From IMG/VR virus record IMGVR_UViG_3300042892_001971: a DNA stretch of 64,000 nt; one strand, written 5' to 3'. This document shows positions 1,287-42,281 of this stretch, piece after piece. Each line of letters starts with the position of its first letter. Position 1 is the first letter of the stretch. The translations under genes were made by a program, and so were the position numbers. The DNA comes from an uncultured virus (IMG/VR IMGVR_UViG_3300042892_001971). Lineage: Duplodnaviria > Heunggongvirae > Uroviricota > Caudoviricetes. The notes beneath the pieces are model-generated. The model worked only from the letters and a program-made list of their open reading frames with translations. It was not told the DNA's origin and made no database searches.

Positions 1287-2140
1287 TGTATAGTAACTTT
1301 GAGCACCCTTTGTTGGCGTGCTATTTCTTGTATGAGTTGTTGTGGTTGTCCGGCATACTGCAAATCTGCCACGGGAAAACGTAAGGGTTGTGCTATTGCA
1401 TTATACACACTTGTGATGCCATGGGCAAGAAAAAAATCTTGGTGTTGATCAATGTACTGTTGCATGCCTGGCTCTTTGAAGCTTAAATCCTGATTGAAAA
1501 ATGCCACATGAAAATCGGCACTGTAGTGACCAAACGGTCGGAATGCATCCTCACCTATGTACTCATCATTGTCGTGTGCTAGGTCCTCAACTGTTTTTCC
1601 AATTTCACAATAATTGAGATACACAGTTCCAAATTGTATTTGCGGTTCACCCCATTGCGCCAACTGATCAGGATCAAGTTTCTTTGTTTTGGGCATACCA
1701 AACCAAGTGCAAACAAATCTTGGCTTCACACCTTCAAGCACAGTCTCACATCTATGCACTGCCAGGTTCAATTCTGACAGTGCCTGTCTCACAGCAACTG
1801 GTGCCTGTTGCCAGTATTCTGATGTCTGTTGATCTAGCAGTCCATGGTAGCGTTCAAAAATGTTGTGCAAGTAATTGAGACTGTTTTGGCTCCAATCAAA
1901 CCCACGTTCAATAATGGCTTCATGTTGGTTGATTGTTGTGATACATTGTTGGATCATAATTTCGGCACGAATGCGCTCTTCCAATTGAGAGCCAAAGCCG
2001 TAAAATCTATCTGGATGATCTAATGGATAACTGCCGCGGGCTTGCATACGCTCAACCCATAACTCAGCAAGAGGGGTTGCTCGTATTTTAAATTGTAATG
2101 TCAAGCCTTGGCTCAGATGTATCAGCAGGTGTTGCGGCAT
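1283..2140 (-). CDS. Hypothetical protein; distant paralog of 16783..17556
   Basis: 285-aa ORF with a promoter directly upstream. Motifs LNYLH, LNLAVHRCE and YCEIGK. Confidence 0.8.
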   Translation of the reverse strand: MPQHLLIHLSQGLTLQFKIRATPLAELWVERMQARGSYPLDHPDRFYGFGSQLEERIRAEIMIQQCITTINQHEAIIERGFDWSQNSLNYLHNIFERYHGLLDQQTSEYWQQAPVAVRQALSELNLAVHRCETVLEGVKPRFVCTWFGMPKTKKLDPDQLAQWGEPQIQFGTVYLNYCEIGKTVEDLAHDNDEYIGEDAFRPFGHYSADFHVAFFNQDLSFKEPGMQQYIDQHQDFFLAHGITSVYNAIAQPLRFPVADLQYAGQPQQLIQEIARQQRVLKVTIQ

Positions 2141-2146
2141 TGTAAC

Positions 2147-2175
2147 AGTATATACTTACCGCCGCAAGAAGTCAA
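2147..2175 (-). promoter_or_regulatory. Sigma70-type promoter, probably giving a leaderless mRNA
   Basis: TTGACT-N17-TATACT, then 6 nt, then the ATG at 2140. No Shine-Dalgarno. Confidence 0.75.
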
Positions 2176-2206
2176 AAAGACAGGTACCTTTTTAGGGGTA
2201 CCTGCC
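2174..2206 (-). terminator. Rho-independent terminator ending the early operon
   Basis: GGCAGGTACC/GGTACCTGTC stem followed by TTTTT on the minus strand. Confidence 0.8.
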
Positions 2207-2210
2207 ACAA

Positions 2211-2257
2211 AGCCCGGGCCGGAGCCAACCAATGCCCGGGTTAACCTTGGAGGGTTA
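2211..2257 (-). ncRNA. Candidate 3'-UTR regulatory RNA element (hairpin with an anti-RBS loop)
   Basis: CCCGGGC/GCCCGGG stem with the 14-nt loop AUUGGUUGGCUCCG, complementary to GGAGCCAACCA at 3618-3628. Confidence 0.45.
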
Positions 2258-2470
2258 ATCTTTTGAGTTGACTGTGGTCTTAAACAAGAAGCCACACAGG
2301 ATAGTGATACCCCAGGCTTGCAACCAAGTGACTTCTTTCACAGAAGGCACTGCATCAACCAAACAACCATTCCACAGCATGTACACTGGCCAGCTCAGTA
2401 AGAAACTCAGTAACAGAATTCCTACAATACCAATCACAACTGCACCAACAAAAACTGCAAATTTTTCCAT
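2255..2470 (-). CDS. Small membrane protein
   Basis: 71 aa with two hydrophobic segments; GGAG Shine-Dalgarno. Confidence 0.75.
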   Translation of the reverse strand: MEKFAVFVGAVVIGIVGILLLSFLLSWPVYMLWNGCLVDAVPSVKEVTWLQAWGITILCGFLFKTTVNSKD

Positions 2471-2471
2471 G

Positions 2472-2588
2472 TCACGCTCCGTAGTATTCCAGGCACTTCA
2501 CAGTAAAGCCTGCTTCGCGCTGTTCATCTGCTTCGTACTCGGTGTCCACCGAGTACAGGTACAGGTCGCCATCCCATATTTCATACAT
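2472..2588 (-). CDS. Small acidic hypothetical protein (38 aa)
   Basis: Hand-translated MYEIWDGDLYLYSVDTEYEADEQREAGFTVKCLEYYGA. AGGAG Shine-Dalgarno; exactly fills the gap between its neighbours. Confidence 0.65.
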   Translation of the reverse strand: MYEIWDGDLYLYSVDTEYEADEQREAGFTVKCLEYYGA

Positions 2589-2589
2589 G

Positions 2590-3618
2590 TTAGGCTCCTG
2601 CTGGTTTCATAACAGTGGTCTCTGCCAGGCGCTTCCAGTTCAACACTGACATCTTGCGCAAGTCTGCAATCTTGAGAGCCATACGCAAACTCATCTCACG
2701 CAGACGATTTTTATTCTCGTCCATGAAGGCGATAATCTCGTCTTGCACACACTCGTCAAAGTCGTAGTCTGCAAACAACACACCGTCCTTGGCAATCTGC
2801 TTGATACGCAGGACCTTGTCACGCATGGTGTCCAGGGTCAAGTCCAAGTAGTGGCATCGGCTTTGCAGTGCATCCAAGTGGTCCCGCAATTTTTGCGAAC
2901 GCATGGTGTCAAACTTCAAGTTGGTAATAAAAATTACCGAACCCTTGAACTCAAAACTGTCCGGAATGCCTTCGCTTCGCAGAATGCGACTGTCAGACAA
3001 CCAGGAAATCTTACGCTTCTTGCCTGAGTCCAAGGCACCCTTGAGCAGGTTAAGAGCAACGTCATCTAACAAGATGCTGTCACAGTCATCAAACACCAAC
3101 ACACAATTAGGATCTGAATACTTGTACAGGGTTTGGTACAGGCCAATGGGACTGGCTGAGCCTTTGACAACCTCGGCCTTAAGGCGTTTGCTGGCCAGTT
3201 TGTCGAACAAACAGGCCTTGTCAATTTCTTGCTCAACGCCGTAGCTCTTGCCCACGCCCGGGGGGCCACTCACAATCATAGCACGGATGTCGCCGCTCAC
3301 ACAGGCCTTGGTCATCTCATGCAGGATGTCAAAACGCTCACGGATACGATCCATGGCCTGTTCGTCTGTCTCTGCCACCACAGTGGGCTTGAATTTTACA
3401 GTGTTTTCTTGCACGGTTTCTCCTGAAGTATACTCAATGTCTGAAATGTTTTCTACCTTGACGCGAATGGCAGCAGGGCAGTTGGGAAAGGTACCATCAT
3501 TTTGCACGGTGACATAGCCACCTTTGGCACCAGTTTGGAATCCACTCACTAGAGTGAACACTTGGTTTTGAACAGTTTTGTTGCGGTAAACGCCGCGAAC
3601 GATACGAATTGCACTCAT
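2590..3618 (-). CDS. AAA+-type P-loop ATPase (early gene)
   Basis: Walker A GPPGVGKS and Walker B LVFDDCD. Start moved to MSAIRIV, after TAAGGAG and downstream of a promoter. Confidence 0.85.
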   Translation of the reverse strand: MSAIRIVRGVYRNKTVQNQVFTLVSGFQTGAKGGYVTVQNDGTFPNCPAAIRVKVENISDIEYTSGETVQENTVKFKPTVVAETDEQAMDRIRERFDILHEMTKACVSGDIRAMIVSGPPGVGKSYGVEQEIDKACLFDKLASKRLKAEVVKGSASPIGLYQTLYKYSDPNCVLVFDDCDSILLDDVALNLLKGALDSGKKRKISWLSDSRILRSEGIPDSFEFKGSVIFITNLKFDTMRSQKLRDHLDALQSRCHYLDLTLDTMRDKVLRIKQIAKDGVLFADYDFDECVQDEIIAFMDENKNRLREMSLRMALKIADLRKMSVLNWKRLAETTVMKPAGA

Positions 3619-3663
3619 GGTTGGCTCCTTAGTGTGCTGTTGAACTTTGCTGTCTATGTGTGT

Positions 3664-3692
3664 ATTATAGCAAATTGGCATTTATTCGTCAA
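3664..3692 (-). promoter_or_regulatory. Phage early promoter
   Basis: TTGACG-N17-TATAAT with extended -10 (TGC). Confidence 0.85.
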
Positions 3693-3864
3693 CCGGCGCA
3701 AACAATGCTTGGCCTTGTTGCATAAAAACAACAAATGCTTCCATTGTGCTTTCGCTGTATAGCATGCGACCGTGTTGTTTGATGTCTTGCAGAGTTTCCA
3801 ACAAGGGCATGCCTAGGAATTCTGCTTCTTTTTGTAGGTGTTTGATTGCTGTGGCTATTTGCAT
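3682..3864 (-). CDS. Small early hypothetical protein
   Basis: 60 aa, AAGGAG Shine-Dalgarno, own promoter. Confidence 0.75.
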   Translation of the reverse strand: MQIATAIKHLQKEAEFLGMPLLETLQDIKQHGRMLYSESTMEAFVVFMQQGQALFAPVDE

Positions 3865-3893
3865 TTGGGCTCCTTTTTGCTGTCTATGTGTGT

Positions 3894-3922
3894 ATTATAG
3901 CAGATCGGGATTTAATGGTCAA
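3894..3922 (-). promoter_or_regulatory. Phage early promoter
   Basis: TTGACC-N17-TATAAT; the -10/leader region 3876-3902 is identical over 27 bp to 3646-3672. Confidence 0.85.
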
Positions 3923-4143
3923 CCTTTGGAATTCATTTTATCTAAAATTTCTTGCGACTGCAATCGACCTAATACTATAGTATACATCAAATATACCAGA
4001 CCCCCAATAGCCAGTGTGGCCACGGTGTACTGAAGCAGTTCCACAGGTGCATACTTTAGCACTACCTGAATTGCCACTACCATTATGGCCATGTATCCTA
4101 AAATTCCCAGGGTTTTTACTGCGGCTCTAACACGAATATTCAT
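3919..4143 (-). CDS. Small two-helix membrane protein
   Basis: 74 aa with two hydrophobic stretches; own promoter. Confidence 0.75.
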   Translation of the reverse strand: MNIRVRAAVKTLGILGYMAIMVVAIQVVLKYAPVELLQYTVATLAIGGLVYLMYTIVLGRLQSQEILDKMNSKG

Positions 4144-4145
4144 AT

Positions 4146-4628
4146 CTACCTTTCTTTGTATGCCACTATTGTAGCAGATCGGGAATTATTGGTCAAGCCC
4201 CGCCAGTTTGGAGGGTTATTAGTACTAAAGTACACAGAATTGTGTAGCTGTTCTGTGGGCACACCATGCTCCTTGTAGCCCTCTAGCACCATGTCAAAGT
4301 ACCCATCTGAGGGCAGGCTGTCTAAGTGCCCAGGTTGCATAAAGTAAGTCATGGCGTTTACAACACGACCTTGATGTAGTACTTTTTTAGTACGACGATT
4401 GTAGTAGTGCGGAAATCCTTCAAGGAGGTCCAGTGCGTCAAGACACTTGGGTGTGATGGTCCATAGCACGCCATCAACATAGCTATCAGGGCACTTTACA
4501 ACATCCGCAGGACCTGCAAACCGAAACACATGGTCTAGCAAAACAGCACGACCGTGACTTACCGCGGCCGGGCATCGCTGAGACATGCCTTGCGAGTTGG
4601 TGTTCATACCATAAGCAAAGTATAACAA
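4146..4628 (-). CDS. Gamma-glutamylcyclotransferase (GGCT/AIG2-like) family protein
   Basis: N-terminal YFAYGMN, VDGVLW, LDLLEGFP..Y.R and PSDGY motifs. TTG start. Confidence 0.8.
   Translation of the reverse strand: MLYFAYGMNTNSQGMSQRCPAAVSHGRAVLLDHVFRFAGPADVVKCPDSYVDGVLWTITPKCLDALDLLEGFPHYYNRRTKKVLHQGRVVNAMTYFMQPGHLDSLPSDGYFDMVLEGYKEHGVPTEQLHNSVYFSTNNPPNWRGLTNNSRSATIVAYKER
4168..4196 (-). promoter_or_regulatory. Phage early promoter
   Basis: TTGACC-N17-TACAAT with the shared spacer AATAATTCCCGATCTGC. Confidence 0.8.
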
Positions 4629-4633
4629 AAGTA

Positions 4634-4840
4634 TTACCTTTTTAAGATTTCGTAAAATTGTTGATTGAGCGCATCCATTTCGCTCTGATCCACATAGAAG
4701 TCAGTACGGGGGTCATAGTAGGCGCCCTCTTTGTTGCAATAATACAACACTCTGCCTGAGAAGTTGAACGGGCCTTCCAGTCCAGCACGAGCACTGTATT
4801 TGTCGCGCATGTTGTCGACTTCAATAACCTTGTAACCCAT
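4634..4840 (-). CDS. Small early hypothetical protein
   Basis: 68 aa, CAGGAG Shine-Dalgarno, motif LYY..KEGAYYDPRTDFY. Confidence 0.75.
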   Translation of the reverse strand: MGYKVIEVDNMRDKYSARAGLEGPFNFSGRVLYYCNKEGAYYDPRTDFYVDQSEMDALNQQFYEILKR

Positions 4841-4870
4841 GCCAGACTCCTGTTTGCTGTTTAAGTGTTA

Positions 4871-4899
4871 ATTATAGCAGAATGGAAATTATTGGTCAA
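4871..4899 (-). promoter_or_regulatory. Phage early promoter
   Basis: TTGACC-N17-TATAAT. Confidence 0.85.
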
Positions 4900-4909
4900 C
4901 CAACCAAAA

Positions 4910-5650
4910 CTAAACCCAAAGTTGTACAATTTTGGGGTCGCGTACTTCGTGCGGTTTGGGCTGGCCGTGAAACACCATCACGCAGGTATCAGAGTCAATC
5001 ACAGCACCTGCTCCCGGCGAGCGAGGCACACGTATGGGAAAGTCGAACCCACCATCGGCAATTTGCCAGCGATAACTTTTGATTCGATTGACGTCAAAGT
5101 ATCTGCGATTGTTGTAGTCAATTGTGGCATTGAGATAGTCCTGGTCTCCGTGATACTGCCGTACAACTTTGGTCACGTCTTCAGATTTAAATTTTTCCCA
5201 TACATGTTGATAACGCTCTACATTCCACCACATGATACTGCTGTTGATTCCAGAAAATGTTTCTTTTTGCAAGTATCTGAAATCTTTAATGCACCAAAAC
5301 TTTTCTGTGTCAAGATGTGTGATCCACGTTATGTCTCCGTTGATCACAACATCCAAGTCAAAATACAACAAATCTCCTGAGTAATGTTCAGGATTAAACA
5401 ACTGCATTTTGTACCACCAGGATTTTTTAGGACCGCCTATACCTGGCCAATCTTCCAAACAATGTTTGATCATATGCGGTGGTACTGATCGATCATGTTC
5501 TGTGTAAACGTGCATTCTGCAGCCACCACTTAGATGTCGATTCAACATGTTGTACAGCCGTTCAACATATATCCAGTCATAACCAGTTCCGTGAATAACG
5601 CAGGCGCAGTCAATCATTTGGTCAGTGCGGGTTTGATTCTTTTTAGACAT
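4910..5650 (-). CDS. GT-A fold glycosyltransferase (GT8-like)
   Basis: WWYK, LYFDLDVVI (DxD), NSSIM, GDQDYL and FHGQPKP motifs. Confidence 0.8.
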   Translation of the reverse strand: MSKKNQTRTDQMIDCACVIHGTGYDWIYVERLYNMLNRHLSGGCRMHVYTEHDRSVPPHMIKHCLEDWPGIGGPKKSWWYKMQLFNPEHYSGDLLYFDLDVVINGDITWITHLDTEKFWCIKDFRYLQKETFSGINSSIMWWNVERYQHVWEKFKSEDVTKVVRQYHGDQDYLNATIDYNNRRYFDVNRIKSYRWQIADGGFDFPIRVPRSPGAGAVIDSDTCVMVFHGQPKPHEVRDPKIVQLWV

Positions 5651-6280
5651 TTAAAACTGCCAAACAATTTGGTACTCATCGTAGATTGGCAAATGATTTT
5701 TGCTCGCAAGATATTCTAATACTGCGCGACCTTTGCCTGTGCGTTGATAACTGTGGCACCAACGACTGTTGTCATCGATTGCAACCACAGTGCCTGGTCG
5801 TAAAACTGGTTCAATCTCTAAAAATTCTTTAAGGTGATGGTCGGCACTGGCCGTATCATCATGCCAATCTACATCATAACTGTCTAAATAAAATAAATCA
5901 ACTTGATCCAAATCTGTTTGCTGTTTTAACCATGCAACACTATCACCGCACGATACTTCAAATTGTGTGCTATTGACAAAATCTTTTGCTACTTCACAGG
6001 CTGCAGGATCTATATCTACACTACATACGTTTCCTCCGTGGTATTCAACAAAACGTGTGAACAATGCCGCGCTTTGTCCATCAGACCAATTGTTAGCAGT
6101 TCGTAGCGTGCCAGTTTCAATGATATTAAAGTTTTTGGATTTTTGATTTAGCAACAATCTCCACATGATGTCAAATCCGATTGCACGATTGTATAATCCA
6201 TGCGCCAATTGCCCGTGGCTATCAGCATTGATATTCAAAAGAGGATAGTAAGTTTTACGATAATGTTCAAGCCAGTTCAT
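5651..6280 (-). CDS. Class I SAM methyltransferase (Methyltransf_24-like)
   Basis: IIETGT, SVDID, GDSV, DLFYLDS and IDDN motifs. Start MNWLEHY, with ATGA overlap. Confidence 0.75.
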   Translation of the reverse strand: MNWLEHYRKTYYPLLNINADSHGQLAHGLYNRAIGFDIMWRLLLNQKSKNFNIIETGTLRTANNWSDGQSAALFTRFVEYHGGNVCSVDIDPAACEVAKDFVNSTQFEVSCGDSVAWLKQQTDLDQVDLFYLDSYDVDWHDDTASADHHLKEFLEIEPVLRPGTVVAIDDNSRWCHSYQRTGKGRAVLEYLASKNHLPIYDEYQIVWQF

Positions 6281-7131
6281 GTTGAGCTTTCTAATGCAGG
6301 AGCAATTCTTTTTAGCCATATTCCTGTGCGTATTTCAGTTAGGGTATATTCAGTGTGGCAGATCTCTACCAGCCACCGATCTCGATTGATATCGTAAGAC
6401 TTTTCTATGTTGGCCAGGCTCATGCCCACAGGTGCTGCCAAACTGCTCTCATGCACAATGGGCCTGCAACCTGCAATAGCGGCCTGCACACCAGGTCCCG
6501 AATTGTGGTTGACCACTGCATGATAGTTAAACCGCATGTCAAAGCTGTCGTAGGTGCCAGCAACCGGTCGAGGTTGTTCCACTGTGACATCAGGTGGTAA
6601 CTGACTCAAGTTCAGTCGATTGCGTGGATGCGGGCGTATACTGATGGGCCGATCAGTGTGCTGTCTTACCAACTTAATTTGATCCAATACCCATTGTGTC
6701 ATATCCATACCAGCAACTTGTAAACTGCGAGCATGTTGAGCAGCAATAACTACATTGGGACTGGAGTTAAAAGTTATGGCCTGGCTGACATTCAGTGTGC
6801 ATGGTCGATCCCAGTCTAAATTTTCTTCGTGTCCGTAGTATCCATCTCTTGTGATATTGTTTACTGCTACCTTCCAAGTCTGCCCACGATACAGCGCACC
6901 AATTTCCAAAACAATTACTGGTTTGTTTTGTGATCTATAGTGATCGTATACTGCTCGATTAGGTGCCATTCTCCCTGCCCACAGTACCGACCAAATTACA
7001 GCCGCATCAGATTCCATTGAATTTTCTTGTGTTTGTATACCGCGTGCCTGCAAGTAATCCAACACAGCTGACATTACAGGTCTGCTGTTTTGAGCACATT
7101 GAGAAGGAAAATAGGCTATGTTATTGATCAT
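6277..7131 (-). CDS. Capsule-synthesis-like (KpsS/KpsC-like GT-B) protein, paralog 1
   Basis: IRPHP and HAVVNHNSGPGVQAAIAG motifs. Confidence 0.65.
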   Translation of the reverse strand: MINNIAYFPSQCAQNSRPVMSAVLDYLQARGIQTQENSMESDAAVIWSVLWAGRMAPNRAVYDHYRSQNKPVIVLEIGALYRGQTWKVAVNNITRDGYYGHEENLDWDRPCTLNVSQAITFNSSPNVVIAAQHARSLQVAGMDMTQWVLDQIKLVRQHTDRPISIRPHPRNRLNLSQLPPDVTVEQPRPVAGTYDSFDMRFNYHAVVNHNSGPGVQAAIAGCRPIVHESSLAAPVGMSLANIEKSYDINRDRWLVEICHTEYTLTEIRTGIWLKRIAPALESST

Positions 7132-34121: not shown

Positions 34122-34150
34122 AAAAAATAGGGTCCAAAGACCCTATTTTT
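34122..34150. terminator. Bidirectional-type terminator after the sheath gene
   Basis: AAAAATAGGGTC-CAAA-GACCCTATTTTT perfect inverted repeat. Confidence 0.85.
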
Positions 34151-41937: not shown

Positions 41938-42225
41938 TTATGTTACAGGTAAATCTCGGCAGAGTTCAAACAATTGCGTGGCACGTTTGAGTTTAAAGTT
42001 TTTGTGGTTGTACATGTACTTTCTCTTGCGCTCTGCAATGTCCAGGGCCTCCATCAGACGCCATTTGGTGTCAAAGTCTGACTGCATCAAAATACGATTC
42101 ATATCCACAATGTCCAGGCTGTACTCCACCCATTTTTCTGTGGCTTTTATTAGGTCATAGGGCACCACTGCTTTGGACTTGTTGGCAGTAGAGTACTTTG
42201 CAACAAAATTTGCTGCCTTTTGCAT
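41938..42225 (-). CDS. Small early hypothetical protein
   Basis: Start MQKAANF after CAGGAG and an early promoter. Confidence 0.75.
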   Translation of the reverse strand: MQKAANFVAKYSTANKSKAVVPYDLIKATEKWVEYSLDIVDMNRILMQSDFDTKWRLMEALDIAERKRKYMYNHKNFKLKRATQLFELCRDLPVT

Positions 42226-42252
42226 ACGGGCTCCTGTAGTGAACAAGTGTGT

Positions 42253-42281
42253 ATTATAGCAGATCGTGATTATTTGGTCAA
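42253..42281 (-). promoter_or_regulatory. Phage early promoter
   Basis: TTGACC-N17-TATAAT; same spacer and ACACAC leader as the promoters at 3.6-4.9 kb. Confidence 0.85.

Follow-up and report, generated by a model that had tools for sequence, protein, structure and literature searches.

A candidate 3′-terminal anti-RBS element in an early ATPase operon of uncultured giant phages co-varies with the ribosome-binding site of the ATPase gene

The ATPase operon and its 3′ end

The DNA analysed here, a stretch of 64,000 nucleotides (nt) from an uncultured virus of the Caudoviricetes (IMG/VR record IMGVR_UViG_3300042892_001971), is referred to below as the window. Its minus strand, on which all features lie unless stated otherwise, carries a predicted early operon that begins with a AAA-ATPase gene and ends in a hairpin, the loop of which contains a complement (the anti-RBS) to the ribosome-binding site (RBS) of that gene. 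The unit is headed by a predicted sigma-70-type promoter (3664–3692; TTGACG, a 17-nt spacer, TATAAT), which gave 11 of 12 consensus matches in a promoter scan and has a TG ahead of the −10 element; RNA would start near 3657, leaving a leader of ~39 nt that ends in AAGGAGCCAACCAUG. The target site (3618–3628, GGAGCCAACCA) consists of the Shine-Dalgarno (SD) sequence GGAG, the spacer CCAACC and the A of the ATPase AUG (ATG at 3618–3616).

The ATPase gene (2590–3618) is the first cistron and encodes a 342-amino-acid (aa) homologue of T4 NrdC.10 (34% identity across 97% of the length), with matches to phrog_1250 (E = 3e-84) and to Pfam AAA. The nearest cultured proteins are those of the PA5oct group (42.6%), followed by T4 NrdC.10, and a blastn comparison of positions 1500–5500 with 50,697 phage records gave zero matches. 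Two short open reading frames (ORFs) follow. The first (2472–2588; 38 aa, MYEIWDGDL..., RBS GGAGCC) belongs to the variable cargo that separates the ATPase gene from the 3′ element, and small ORFs homologous to it are present in loci L063, L078 and L079 of the survey described below. The second (2255–2470; stop TAA at 2257–2255) encodes a predicted 71-aa membrane protein (phrog_2169, E = 4e-6) and is the last cistron before the element.

The anti-RBS hairpin (2213–2240) has the form claimed for it in an earlier sequence-only reading of this DNA: a stem of CCCGGGC (2240–2234) and GCCCGGG (2219–2213) encloses the loop AUUGGUUGGCUCCG (2233–2220). It is joined by the U-rich linker CUUUGU (2207–2212) to an intrinsic terminator (2174–2206) with a 10-bp stem, an 8-nt loop and UUUUU (GGCAGGTACC-CCTAAAAA-GGTACCTGTC plus TTTTT), in which the GC-rich stem-loop at 2206–2179 runs straight into the U-run. 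Promoter and terminator scans thus put the RBS and the anti-RBS in one predicted unit. The fold of 2260–2165 consists of the hairpin and the terminator and has an energy of −39.2 kcal/mol (z = −3.0), a stability equalled by 1 of 200 shuffles. Only three convincing intrinsic terminators occur in the whole window, so the anti-RBS appears to be a single element rather than a repeated design in this phage. Covariance models of Rfam 15 gave zero matches at gathering score in the whole window and zero at E values up to 1 in 2100–2330.

The anti-RBS itself, UGGUUGGCUCC (2231–2221), occupies the 3′ side of the loop, and its 11 nt are, as had also been claimed, the exact complement of 3628–3618. Exact copies of GGAGCCAACCA occur twice in the window, at 3628–3618 on the minus strand and at 2221–2231 on the plus strand; with up to one mismatch there are four sites against 1.06 expected, a count reached in 4 of 100 shuffles. 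Chance and non-chance readings of this match cannot be separated in the window alone, but they can be by the relatives. The 11-bp duplex has a predicted energy of −20.5 kcal/mol, and opening of the 5′ untranslated region (UTR) with its RBS and of the loop would cost +2.2 and +3.4 kcal/mol, which leaves a net value of about −15 kcal/mol; pairing of the ATPase RBS with a generic 16S 3′ end amounts to −8.3 kcal/mol. The minimum free energy fold of the 1486-nt transcript has no long-range pairing, but the algorithm is a nested one, blind to pseudoknots, and cannot display the pairing of loop and RBS because that pairing is a pseudoknot.

Co-variation in related phages

Relatives were gathered in five scans of IMG/VR, with the window ATPase and four divergent relatives as queries. 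Among the candidate stretches, 599 of 600, 242 of 256, 460 of 465, 393 of 402 and 462 of 474 were relatives, and 80 loci of each scan were kept. The resulting 299 loci, many of them on duplicate contigs, yielded 162 non-redundant ones with an ATPase start and at least 150 nt downstream. Their contigs reach 349 kb and four are 97–100% complete by CheckV, from which it follows that these are giant phages. At least 0.81 of the window's words are present in 14 lake-water DNA runs, and parts of it in six metatranscriptome runs.

For each locus, the 20 nt before the start codon plus the ATG served as the query, and the longest exact complement on the same strand was sought at most 85 nt 5′ of a downstream T-run; the same search on the other strand was the control. 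A search restricted to the first terminator missed the element in L006, L038, L063, L067, L073, L081 and L121, where a search of the whole downstream region recovered it. A complement of at least 9 nt was present on the own strand in 127 of the 162 loci and one of at least 8 nt in 139, against 3 and 19 on the other strand. The window (11 nt) and 127 of its 162 relatives thus have, in the 3′ UTR, a complement to the SD region of their own ATPase gene.

The two sites also change together, which bears out the expectation, voiced in the sequence-only reading, that the loop should follow the ATPase RBS of its own phage. There are 31 distinct cores of the SD plus five bases; 17 have a complement of at least 8 nt and 12 one of at least 9 nt. 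These twelve RBS cores, each with a matching complement, are natural compensatory variants and not laboratory exchanges. The majority pair is GGAGCCAAC(C) with GGTTGGCTCC, also seen as GGAGCCAACC/GGTTGGCTCC, and the loop core GGTTGGCTCC is nearly invariant inside its type. Other matched pairs of RBS and anti-RBS are GGGCTAGAAA/TTTCTAGCCC, GGGCTAGTAA/TTACTAGCCC, CAGGAGCTAAC/GTTAGCTCCTG, TGGAGCAACA/TGTTGCTCCA, CAGGAGTTAAA/TTTAACTCCTG, GGAGTTGGC/GCCAACTCC, GGAGCGAAA/TTTCGCTCC, AAGGAGCTAG/CTAGCTCCTT, AGGAGCTAGA/TCTAGCTCCT, (CA)GGAGCTAA(C)/(G)TTAGCTCC(TG), GGAGCAAG/CTTGCTCC and (CA)GGAGTTAAA/TTTAACTCC(TG). The match was compared between classes in 135 rows, 127 of them with a terminator, which fall into 32 RBS classes with one unselected representative each. 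The complement within own pairs averaged 8.66 nt, that in crossed pairs 6.32 nt, and none of 10,000 permutations reached the observed sum.

Pairing was counted position by position in 122 of 127 loci, the other five being skipped because no anchor was found. Beyond the anchors at positions 1–4, position 5 is paired in 99% of the loci, positions 6, 7 and 8 in 96% each and position 9 in 92%. The proportion then falls to 73% at position 10, 51% at 11, 25% at 12 and 15% at 13, and the flanking positions −1 to −3 are paired in 7–24%. Positions 3–9 each make use of two to five different standard pair types. From this profile, the conserved duplex is about 9 bp long and corresponds to the SD and five spacer bases, and the 11 bp are a property of the window's clade. 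The sequence-only reading had further let the duplex run over the AUG with one bulge. This extension is present in the window, where it needs the closing pair of the stem to be opened, but it is not conserved, as positions 12 and 13 demonstrate.

The surroundings of the anti-RBS were compared in an alignment of 95 of the 104 distinct hairpin-to-terminator sequences; the nine omitted have a second architecture. All seven pairs of the hairpin stem have changed on both sides, with 89.9% of the cells paired; most of the remaining cells reflect misalignment of divergent types. In the terminator, pairing reaches 99.1% and four of the eight pairs have changed on both sides, and the TTT columns of the linker are at least 90% conserved. 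None of 500 shuffles reached any of the observed stem or terminator measures, and sliding the stem partners by 1–3 columns lowers the pairing to 21–50%. The hairpin stem is, to judge by these substitutions, under structural selection. Folded representatives display two architectures. In the first (GGAGCCAAC, GGGCTAG and GGAGCAAG types), the anti-RBS is the 3′ half of a large loop. In the second (GGAGCTAA and GGAGTTAAA types, L078), it is single-stranded and located just 5′ of a small hairpin. The U-rich linker and the terminator come next in both, and the constant feature of the predicted folds is an accessible anti-RBS within ~50 nt of the RNA 3′ end.

The element appears to be specific for the ATPase RBS, which is the only site in the window with an SD and a complement of at least 9 nt to the loop. 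According to the sequence-only reading, the loop core would also match the GGAGCC RBS of three other early genes. GGAGCC does precede their starts (2588, 3864 and 42225), but the loop match holds only within the GGAGCCAAC lineage and the three genes show no co-variation with the loop. In phages of the GGAGCCAAC type, neighbouring early genes often use GGAGCCA as their RBS, which gives partial loop matches of 7–9 nt. In lineages with other RBS types the RBSs of the neighbours are unrelated and only that of the ATPase follows the 3′ element; in L139, for example, a neighbour has GGAGCCACTG, the ATPase gene CAGGAGCTAACA and the 3′ element GTTAGCTCCTG. Over the whole window, GGAGCC shows no enrichment (13 occurrences against 14.4 expected). 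An early promoter-leader cassette (GCTATAATACACAC..., ...AGACAGCAAA...GGAGCC) is repeated ahead of at least three genes (3894–3922, 3664–3692 and ~42225–42262), and it is because of this repetition that GGAGCC recurs as an RBS. In five genomes of 252–349 kb, the 10-mer occurs 2–5 times each when both strands are counted. Of these 13 sites, five are the loop, two are exact ATPase RBSs, and the remaining six lie in ordinary coding-like sequence with no hairpin or terminator around them. With one loop site per genome and the other sites unstructured, the element seems to be single-copy and addressed to one gene.

The history of the pairs was traced on a tree of 161 ATPase proteins, made with a quick method that left 62 of its 158 inner branches unresolved. 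The GGAGCCAAC type is spread over most clades with other types nested within, and two GGGCTAG types belong to different clades. The tree needs 36 changes of the RBS core, the minimum possible being 30, but these are not read as independent compensatory events because UTR modules may move by recombination. Locus L216 is a case of such replacement around a conserved gene. Its ATPase is near-identical to those of L019, L118 and L119, its promoter-leader and its 3′ hairpin are both different, and yet its two ends (2920–3000 and 5060–5170) are again complementary over 9 nt, as GGAGTTGGC/GCCAACTCC; matched ends can thus be replaced together. In its stem sequence, GATCGC, L216 resembles the GGGCTAGTAA type.

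The cultured Pseudomonas phage PA5oct (L197; 1460–1490 and 2655–2685) has an RBS spacer, AGTAGCAT, with an 8-nt complement (ATGCTACT) in the 3′ arm of a small hairpin, AGTAGCA-AGGA-TGCTACT, located 20 nt past the ATPase stop codon. This match was not counted, since at a rough estimate of ~0.3 per locus it is likely to arise by chance. L078 and PA5oct share the RBS GGAGTAGCA.

The unit ends at the next promoter (2147–2175; TTGACT, a 17-nt spacer, TATACT), the −35 element of which overlaps the T-run of the terminator, and TTTTTGAC after the terminator is conserved in relatives. The gene past the terminator encodes 285 aa without a family match. Its ATG at 2140 follows the −10 element TATACT (2152–2147) by 6 nt and has no SD, so that the mRNA looks leaderless; relatives such as L073 have the same arrangement. 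A further hairpin, UUAACC-CUCCAA-GGUUAA (2241–2258), overlaps the stop codon of the 71-aa ORF, carries the generic anti-SD core CCUCC in its loop and is found only in relatives that have this ORF. Upstream of the ATPase unit, early genes at 4146–7131 encode gamma-glutamyl cyclotransferase-like, glycosyltransferase-like (phrog_1962) and methyltransferase-domain proteins. At 34128–34145, A-runs and T-runs border the perfect hairpin TAGGGTC-CAAA-GACCCTA on both strands, which gives it the look of a bidirectional terminator separating convergent units.

Possible mode of action and alternatives

The sequences, their predicted folds and the co-variation of both the RBS/anti-RBS duplex and the stem are direct observations. 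The reading that we prefer, with a probability of roughly 0.7, is that the early operon of these phages carries a 3′-terminal anti-RBS RNA element that represses translation of the ATPase. A transcript starting from the promoter at 3692–3664 would comprise the ATPase gene and small genes in varying number, and its last ~85 nt would form a module of accessible anti-RBS, U-rich linker and intrinsic terminator. The anti-RBS would pair with the SD and spacer of the first cistron, that of the NrdC.10-like AAA-ATPase, and so occlude the site of the 30S subunit. Because the repressor sequence is transcribed last, the ATPase would be translated from nascent or young mRNA and shut down later, which would amount to a delayed negative autoregulation. 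Action on the operon's own mRNA is favoured, intramolecular at first and later exerted by nuclease-resistant 3′ fragments during decay. Three points we infer: a single RNA carries both sites, the sites pair in vivo, and the effect is repression.

Several points weigh against a repressive element of this kind. Pairing is conserved mainly over nine positions, and the first four of these, the anchors, are paired by construction. An 11-bp helix within a 14-nt loop would be sterically strained, a strain that fits the conservation of only about nine pairs. A second class test, on 46 RBS classes, gave 8.39 nt for own and 6.98 nt for crossed pairs (0 of 10,000 permutations) but drew on the best locus of every class, a choice in favour of own pairs; the 32-class test is free of this bias. 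Metatranscriptome contigs cover the region, mostly with 90–99% likeness and thus from relatives, and one spans 2025–2237 across the terminator, but this RNA-library material consists of assembled contigs, which carry no information on starts, ends, strand or level. L079, L163, L276, L116, L122/L128, L155, L164, L078 and L198 have a match of SD length only or none, and T4 nrdC.10 has no downstream complement of at least 7 nt that includes the SD. Finally, in L063 and L067 (2 of the 126 element-bearing loci), the ATPase gene is separated from the element by a perfect-stem terminator and a promoter.

Among these exceptions, L079 (2985–3000 and 4505–4560) and L163 (4410–4470) have no hairpin before the terminator, and their RBSs, AGGACACACA and GGAGTAATAG, are not of the GGAGCC type. 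Both halves, RBS and hairpin, seem to have been lost together.

Whether the element acts in cis or in trans is nearly evenly balanced, with a slight lean towards cis. Cis action is suggested by the 124 of 126 element-bearing loci that are without a perfect-stem terminator between the ATPase gene and the element, and by the precedents of icaR (PMC3868564) and of anti-SD pairing over hundreds of nt within one mRNA (PMC12697547). Loci L063 (4020–4125) and L067 have, inserted directly behind the ATPase gene, a cassette that comprises a terminator, a promoter and a gene for 152 aa and has, as far as the SD, the same leader as the ATPase (cttagtaacacacaaaagg). Some 950 nt beyond, the element is nevertheless still complementary to the RBS of the ATPase rather than to that of the inserted gene. 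It is here probably part of another transcript, which argues against a purely cis mechanism. The distance from the ATPase stop codon to the element varies from 3 to 1731 nt in the 126 loci, so a fixed delay is not conserved.

A more speculative extension, to which we give little credence, is that the RBS/anti-RBS pair is an address code under diversifying selection, with the 3′ module serving both as a co-transcriptional timer and as a trans-acting fragment. A fragment from one lake phage would then silence a co-infecting rival that has a matching ATPase RBS, and lineages would turn again and again to new orthogonal pairs. This would account for the different matched ends around near-identical ATPase genes, as in L216 on the one hand and L019, L118 and L119 on the other, and for the 31 RBS cores among 161 proteins.

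A chiefly trans-acting small RNA (sRNA) is the least improbable of the alternatives, but still unlikely. Such an RNA, ~60–90 nt long and derived from the 3′ UTR, would be a general shut-off of GGAGCC-type early genes with the ATPase as its best target. A seed, a hairpin, a U-rich linker and a terminator in this order are the layout of Hfq-type sRNAs, and the GGAGCCA sites of neighbouring early genes in GGAGCCAAC-type phages, together with the three additional genes in the window, would supply further targets. The layout is also like that of CarZ and OppZ (PMC7398697), and the match retained across a terminator and a promoter in L063 and L067 points the same way. However, in all other RBS types inspected only the ATPase RBS follows the element, no site in the window but that of the ATPase has a complement of at least 9 nt including the SD, and no conserved promoter precedes the hairpin. 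In the majority lineage an sRNA could shut off early genes in general; the other lineages are not explained in this way.

The pairing might instead be positive or neutral, a contact of the 5′ and 3′ UTRs that protects the mRNA ends from RNases or aids ribosome recycling. A precedent is hbs of B. subtilis, where such a contact stabilises the mRNA, and the element does adjoin a protective terminator hairpin. The conserved duplex (positions 1–9), however, always covers the SD and must compete with binding of the 30S subunit. Long-range anti-SD sequences, moreover, reduce expression in a large screen (PMC12697547). A stabilising role is for these reasons quite improbable.

The two sites also form an inverted repeat that flanks the operon, and at the DNA level they could be binding sites of a single protein or the sites at which a recombinase inverts it. 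Inverted repeats of invertible segments co-vary too. The signature of an inverted state was found in none of the 126 loci, though, and a −10-like element precedes the ATPase RBS in 125 of them. Co-variation of the stem that encloses the repeat is what a folded RNA or single strand would show, the repeat is only 8–11 bp long and always includes the SD, and other lineages have the anti-RBS unpaired and 5′ to a small hairpin. General family scans of the ORFs around the operon found no recombinase gene. Taken together, these observations render inversion or protein binding very improbable. A chance resemblance, combined with shared ancestry of a generic anti-SD-like terminator hairpin, would agree with the lack of GGAGCC enrichment and with the ease with which 7–8-nt complements arise in 2.6 kb (19 of 162 loci at 8 nt or more in the control), but is hardly credible given the excess of 127 over 3 loci at 9 nt, the twelve cores with their own complements and the outcome of the permutations.

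Comparison with known systems

Intramolecular gating of translation has precedents. In the hok fold-back (fbi/tac), the 3′ end of the mRNA pairs with its extreme 5′ end and 3′ trimming activates it; in the T4 early transcripts e and soc and in MS2 RNA, the RBS is sequestered by a complement near or upstream of it. The phage element would share with these the logic of a timer, in which intramolecular pairing gates translation by the extent of RNA made or processed. It differs in that its complement is a terminator-proximal loop 1–3 kb downstream. A fold-back of the hok/sok type was considered and rejected: the target is the ATPase RBS and not a 5′-terminal tac, and general scans found no toxin or antisense gene.

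Few bacterial genes are known to be autoregulated post-transcriptionally from the mRNA 3′ end, and for these it was shown only by laboratory mutagenesis. In the present phages, which are abundant, uncultured freshwater phages of ~340 kb, nature appears to have run the compensatory-mutation experiment about a dozen times. The target is an NrdC.10-like ATPase that is kept throughout T4-like phages and has no known function; a comparative genomics study of T4-like phages (PMC1524935) reportedly mentions nrdC.10. The element hints that it matters to the phage how much of this ATPase is made, or when. The orthogonal RBS/anti-RBS pairs are ready-made and suited to E. coli reporters, and the case suggests that a regulatory RNA in viral dark matter is detectable from sequence alone. 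A full-text literature search, with supplements outside its scope, found no description of an anti-RBS element of this kind. For virulent Pseudomonas phages, UTR-derived noncoding RNA candidates are listed without functional characterisation (PMC10914365).

The icaR mRNA of Staphylococcus aureus carries a short pyrimidine-rich 3′-UTR motif; its pairing with the SD region of that mRNA keeps the 30S initiation complex from forming and makes a substrate for RNase III (PMC3868564). The likeness to the phage element lies in a 3′ sequence complementary to the SD region of the same gene. The two have no sequence relation, and the phage complement extends past the SD into the gene-specific spacer (9–11 nt), which would make it specific to one gene. 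It is also placed in a hairpin loop before the terminator of a polycistronic early unit, 1.0–3 kb from the RBS, and it is natural co-variation, not experiment, that argues for it. According to a preprint (Gill et al. 2025, PMC12697547), anti-SD-like sequences act in cis on an RBS that lies several hundred nt upstream of them: they pair with it, initiation is inhibited and decay is promoted. Those generic anti-SD mimics are selected against, unlike the phage sequence, which appears to be selected for, gene-specific and set in a dedicated structured module.

CarZ and OppZ of Vibrio cholerae are autoregulatory sRNAs derived from 3′ UTRs, and CarZ targets carA, the first gene of its own operon; their synthesis is tied 1:1 to that of the target, which gives negative feedback, RNase E releases both, Hfq is required, and OppZ induces termination by Rho (PMC7398697). 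The phage module (2240–2174), conserved in 95 aligned relatives, is similarly located at the 3′ end of an operon, shares its Rho-independent terminator, and is complementary to the site where translation of a gene in that operon would begin, with natural compensatory variants. Unlike CarZ and OppZ as described there, it belongs to giant phages of a lytic type and comes in many orthogonal RBS/anti-RBS variants among close relatives.

The mechanism class is therefore a known one, represented by icaR, CarZ/OppZ and long-range anti-SD pairing in the accounts cited, and the phage element is homologous to none of these. What sets it apart is that it is at once gene-specific, adjacent to a terminator and encoded by a phage, and that it comes as a natural series of orthogonal variants.

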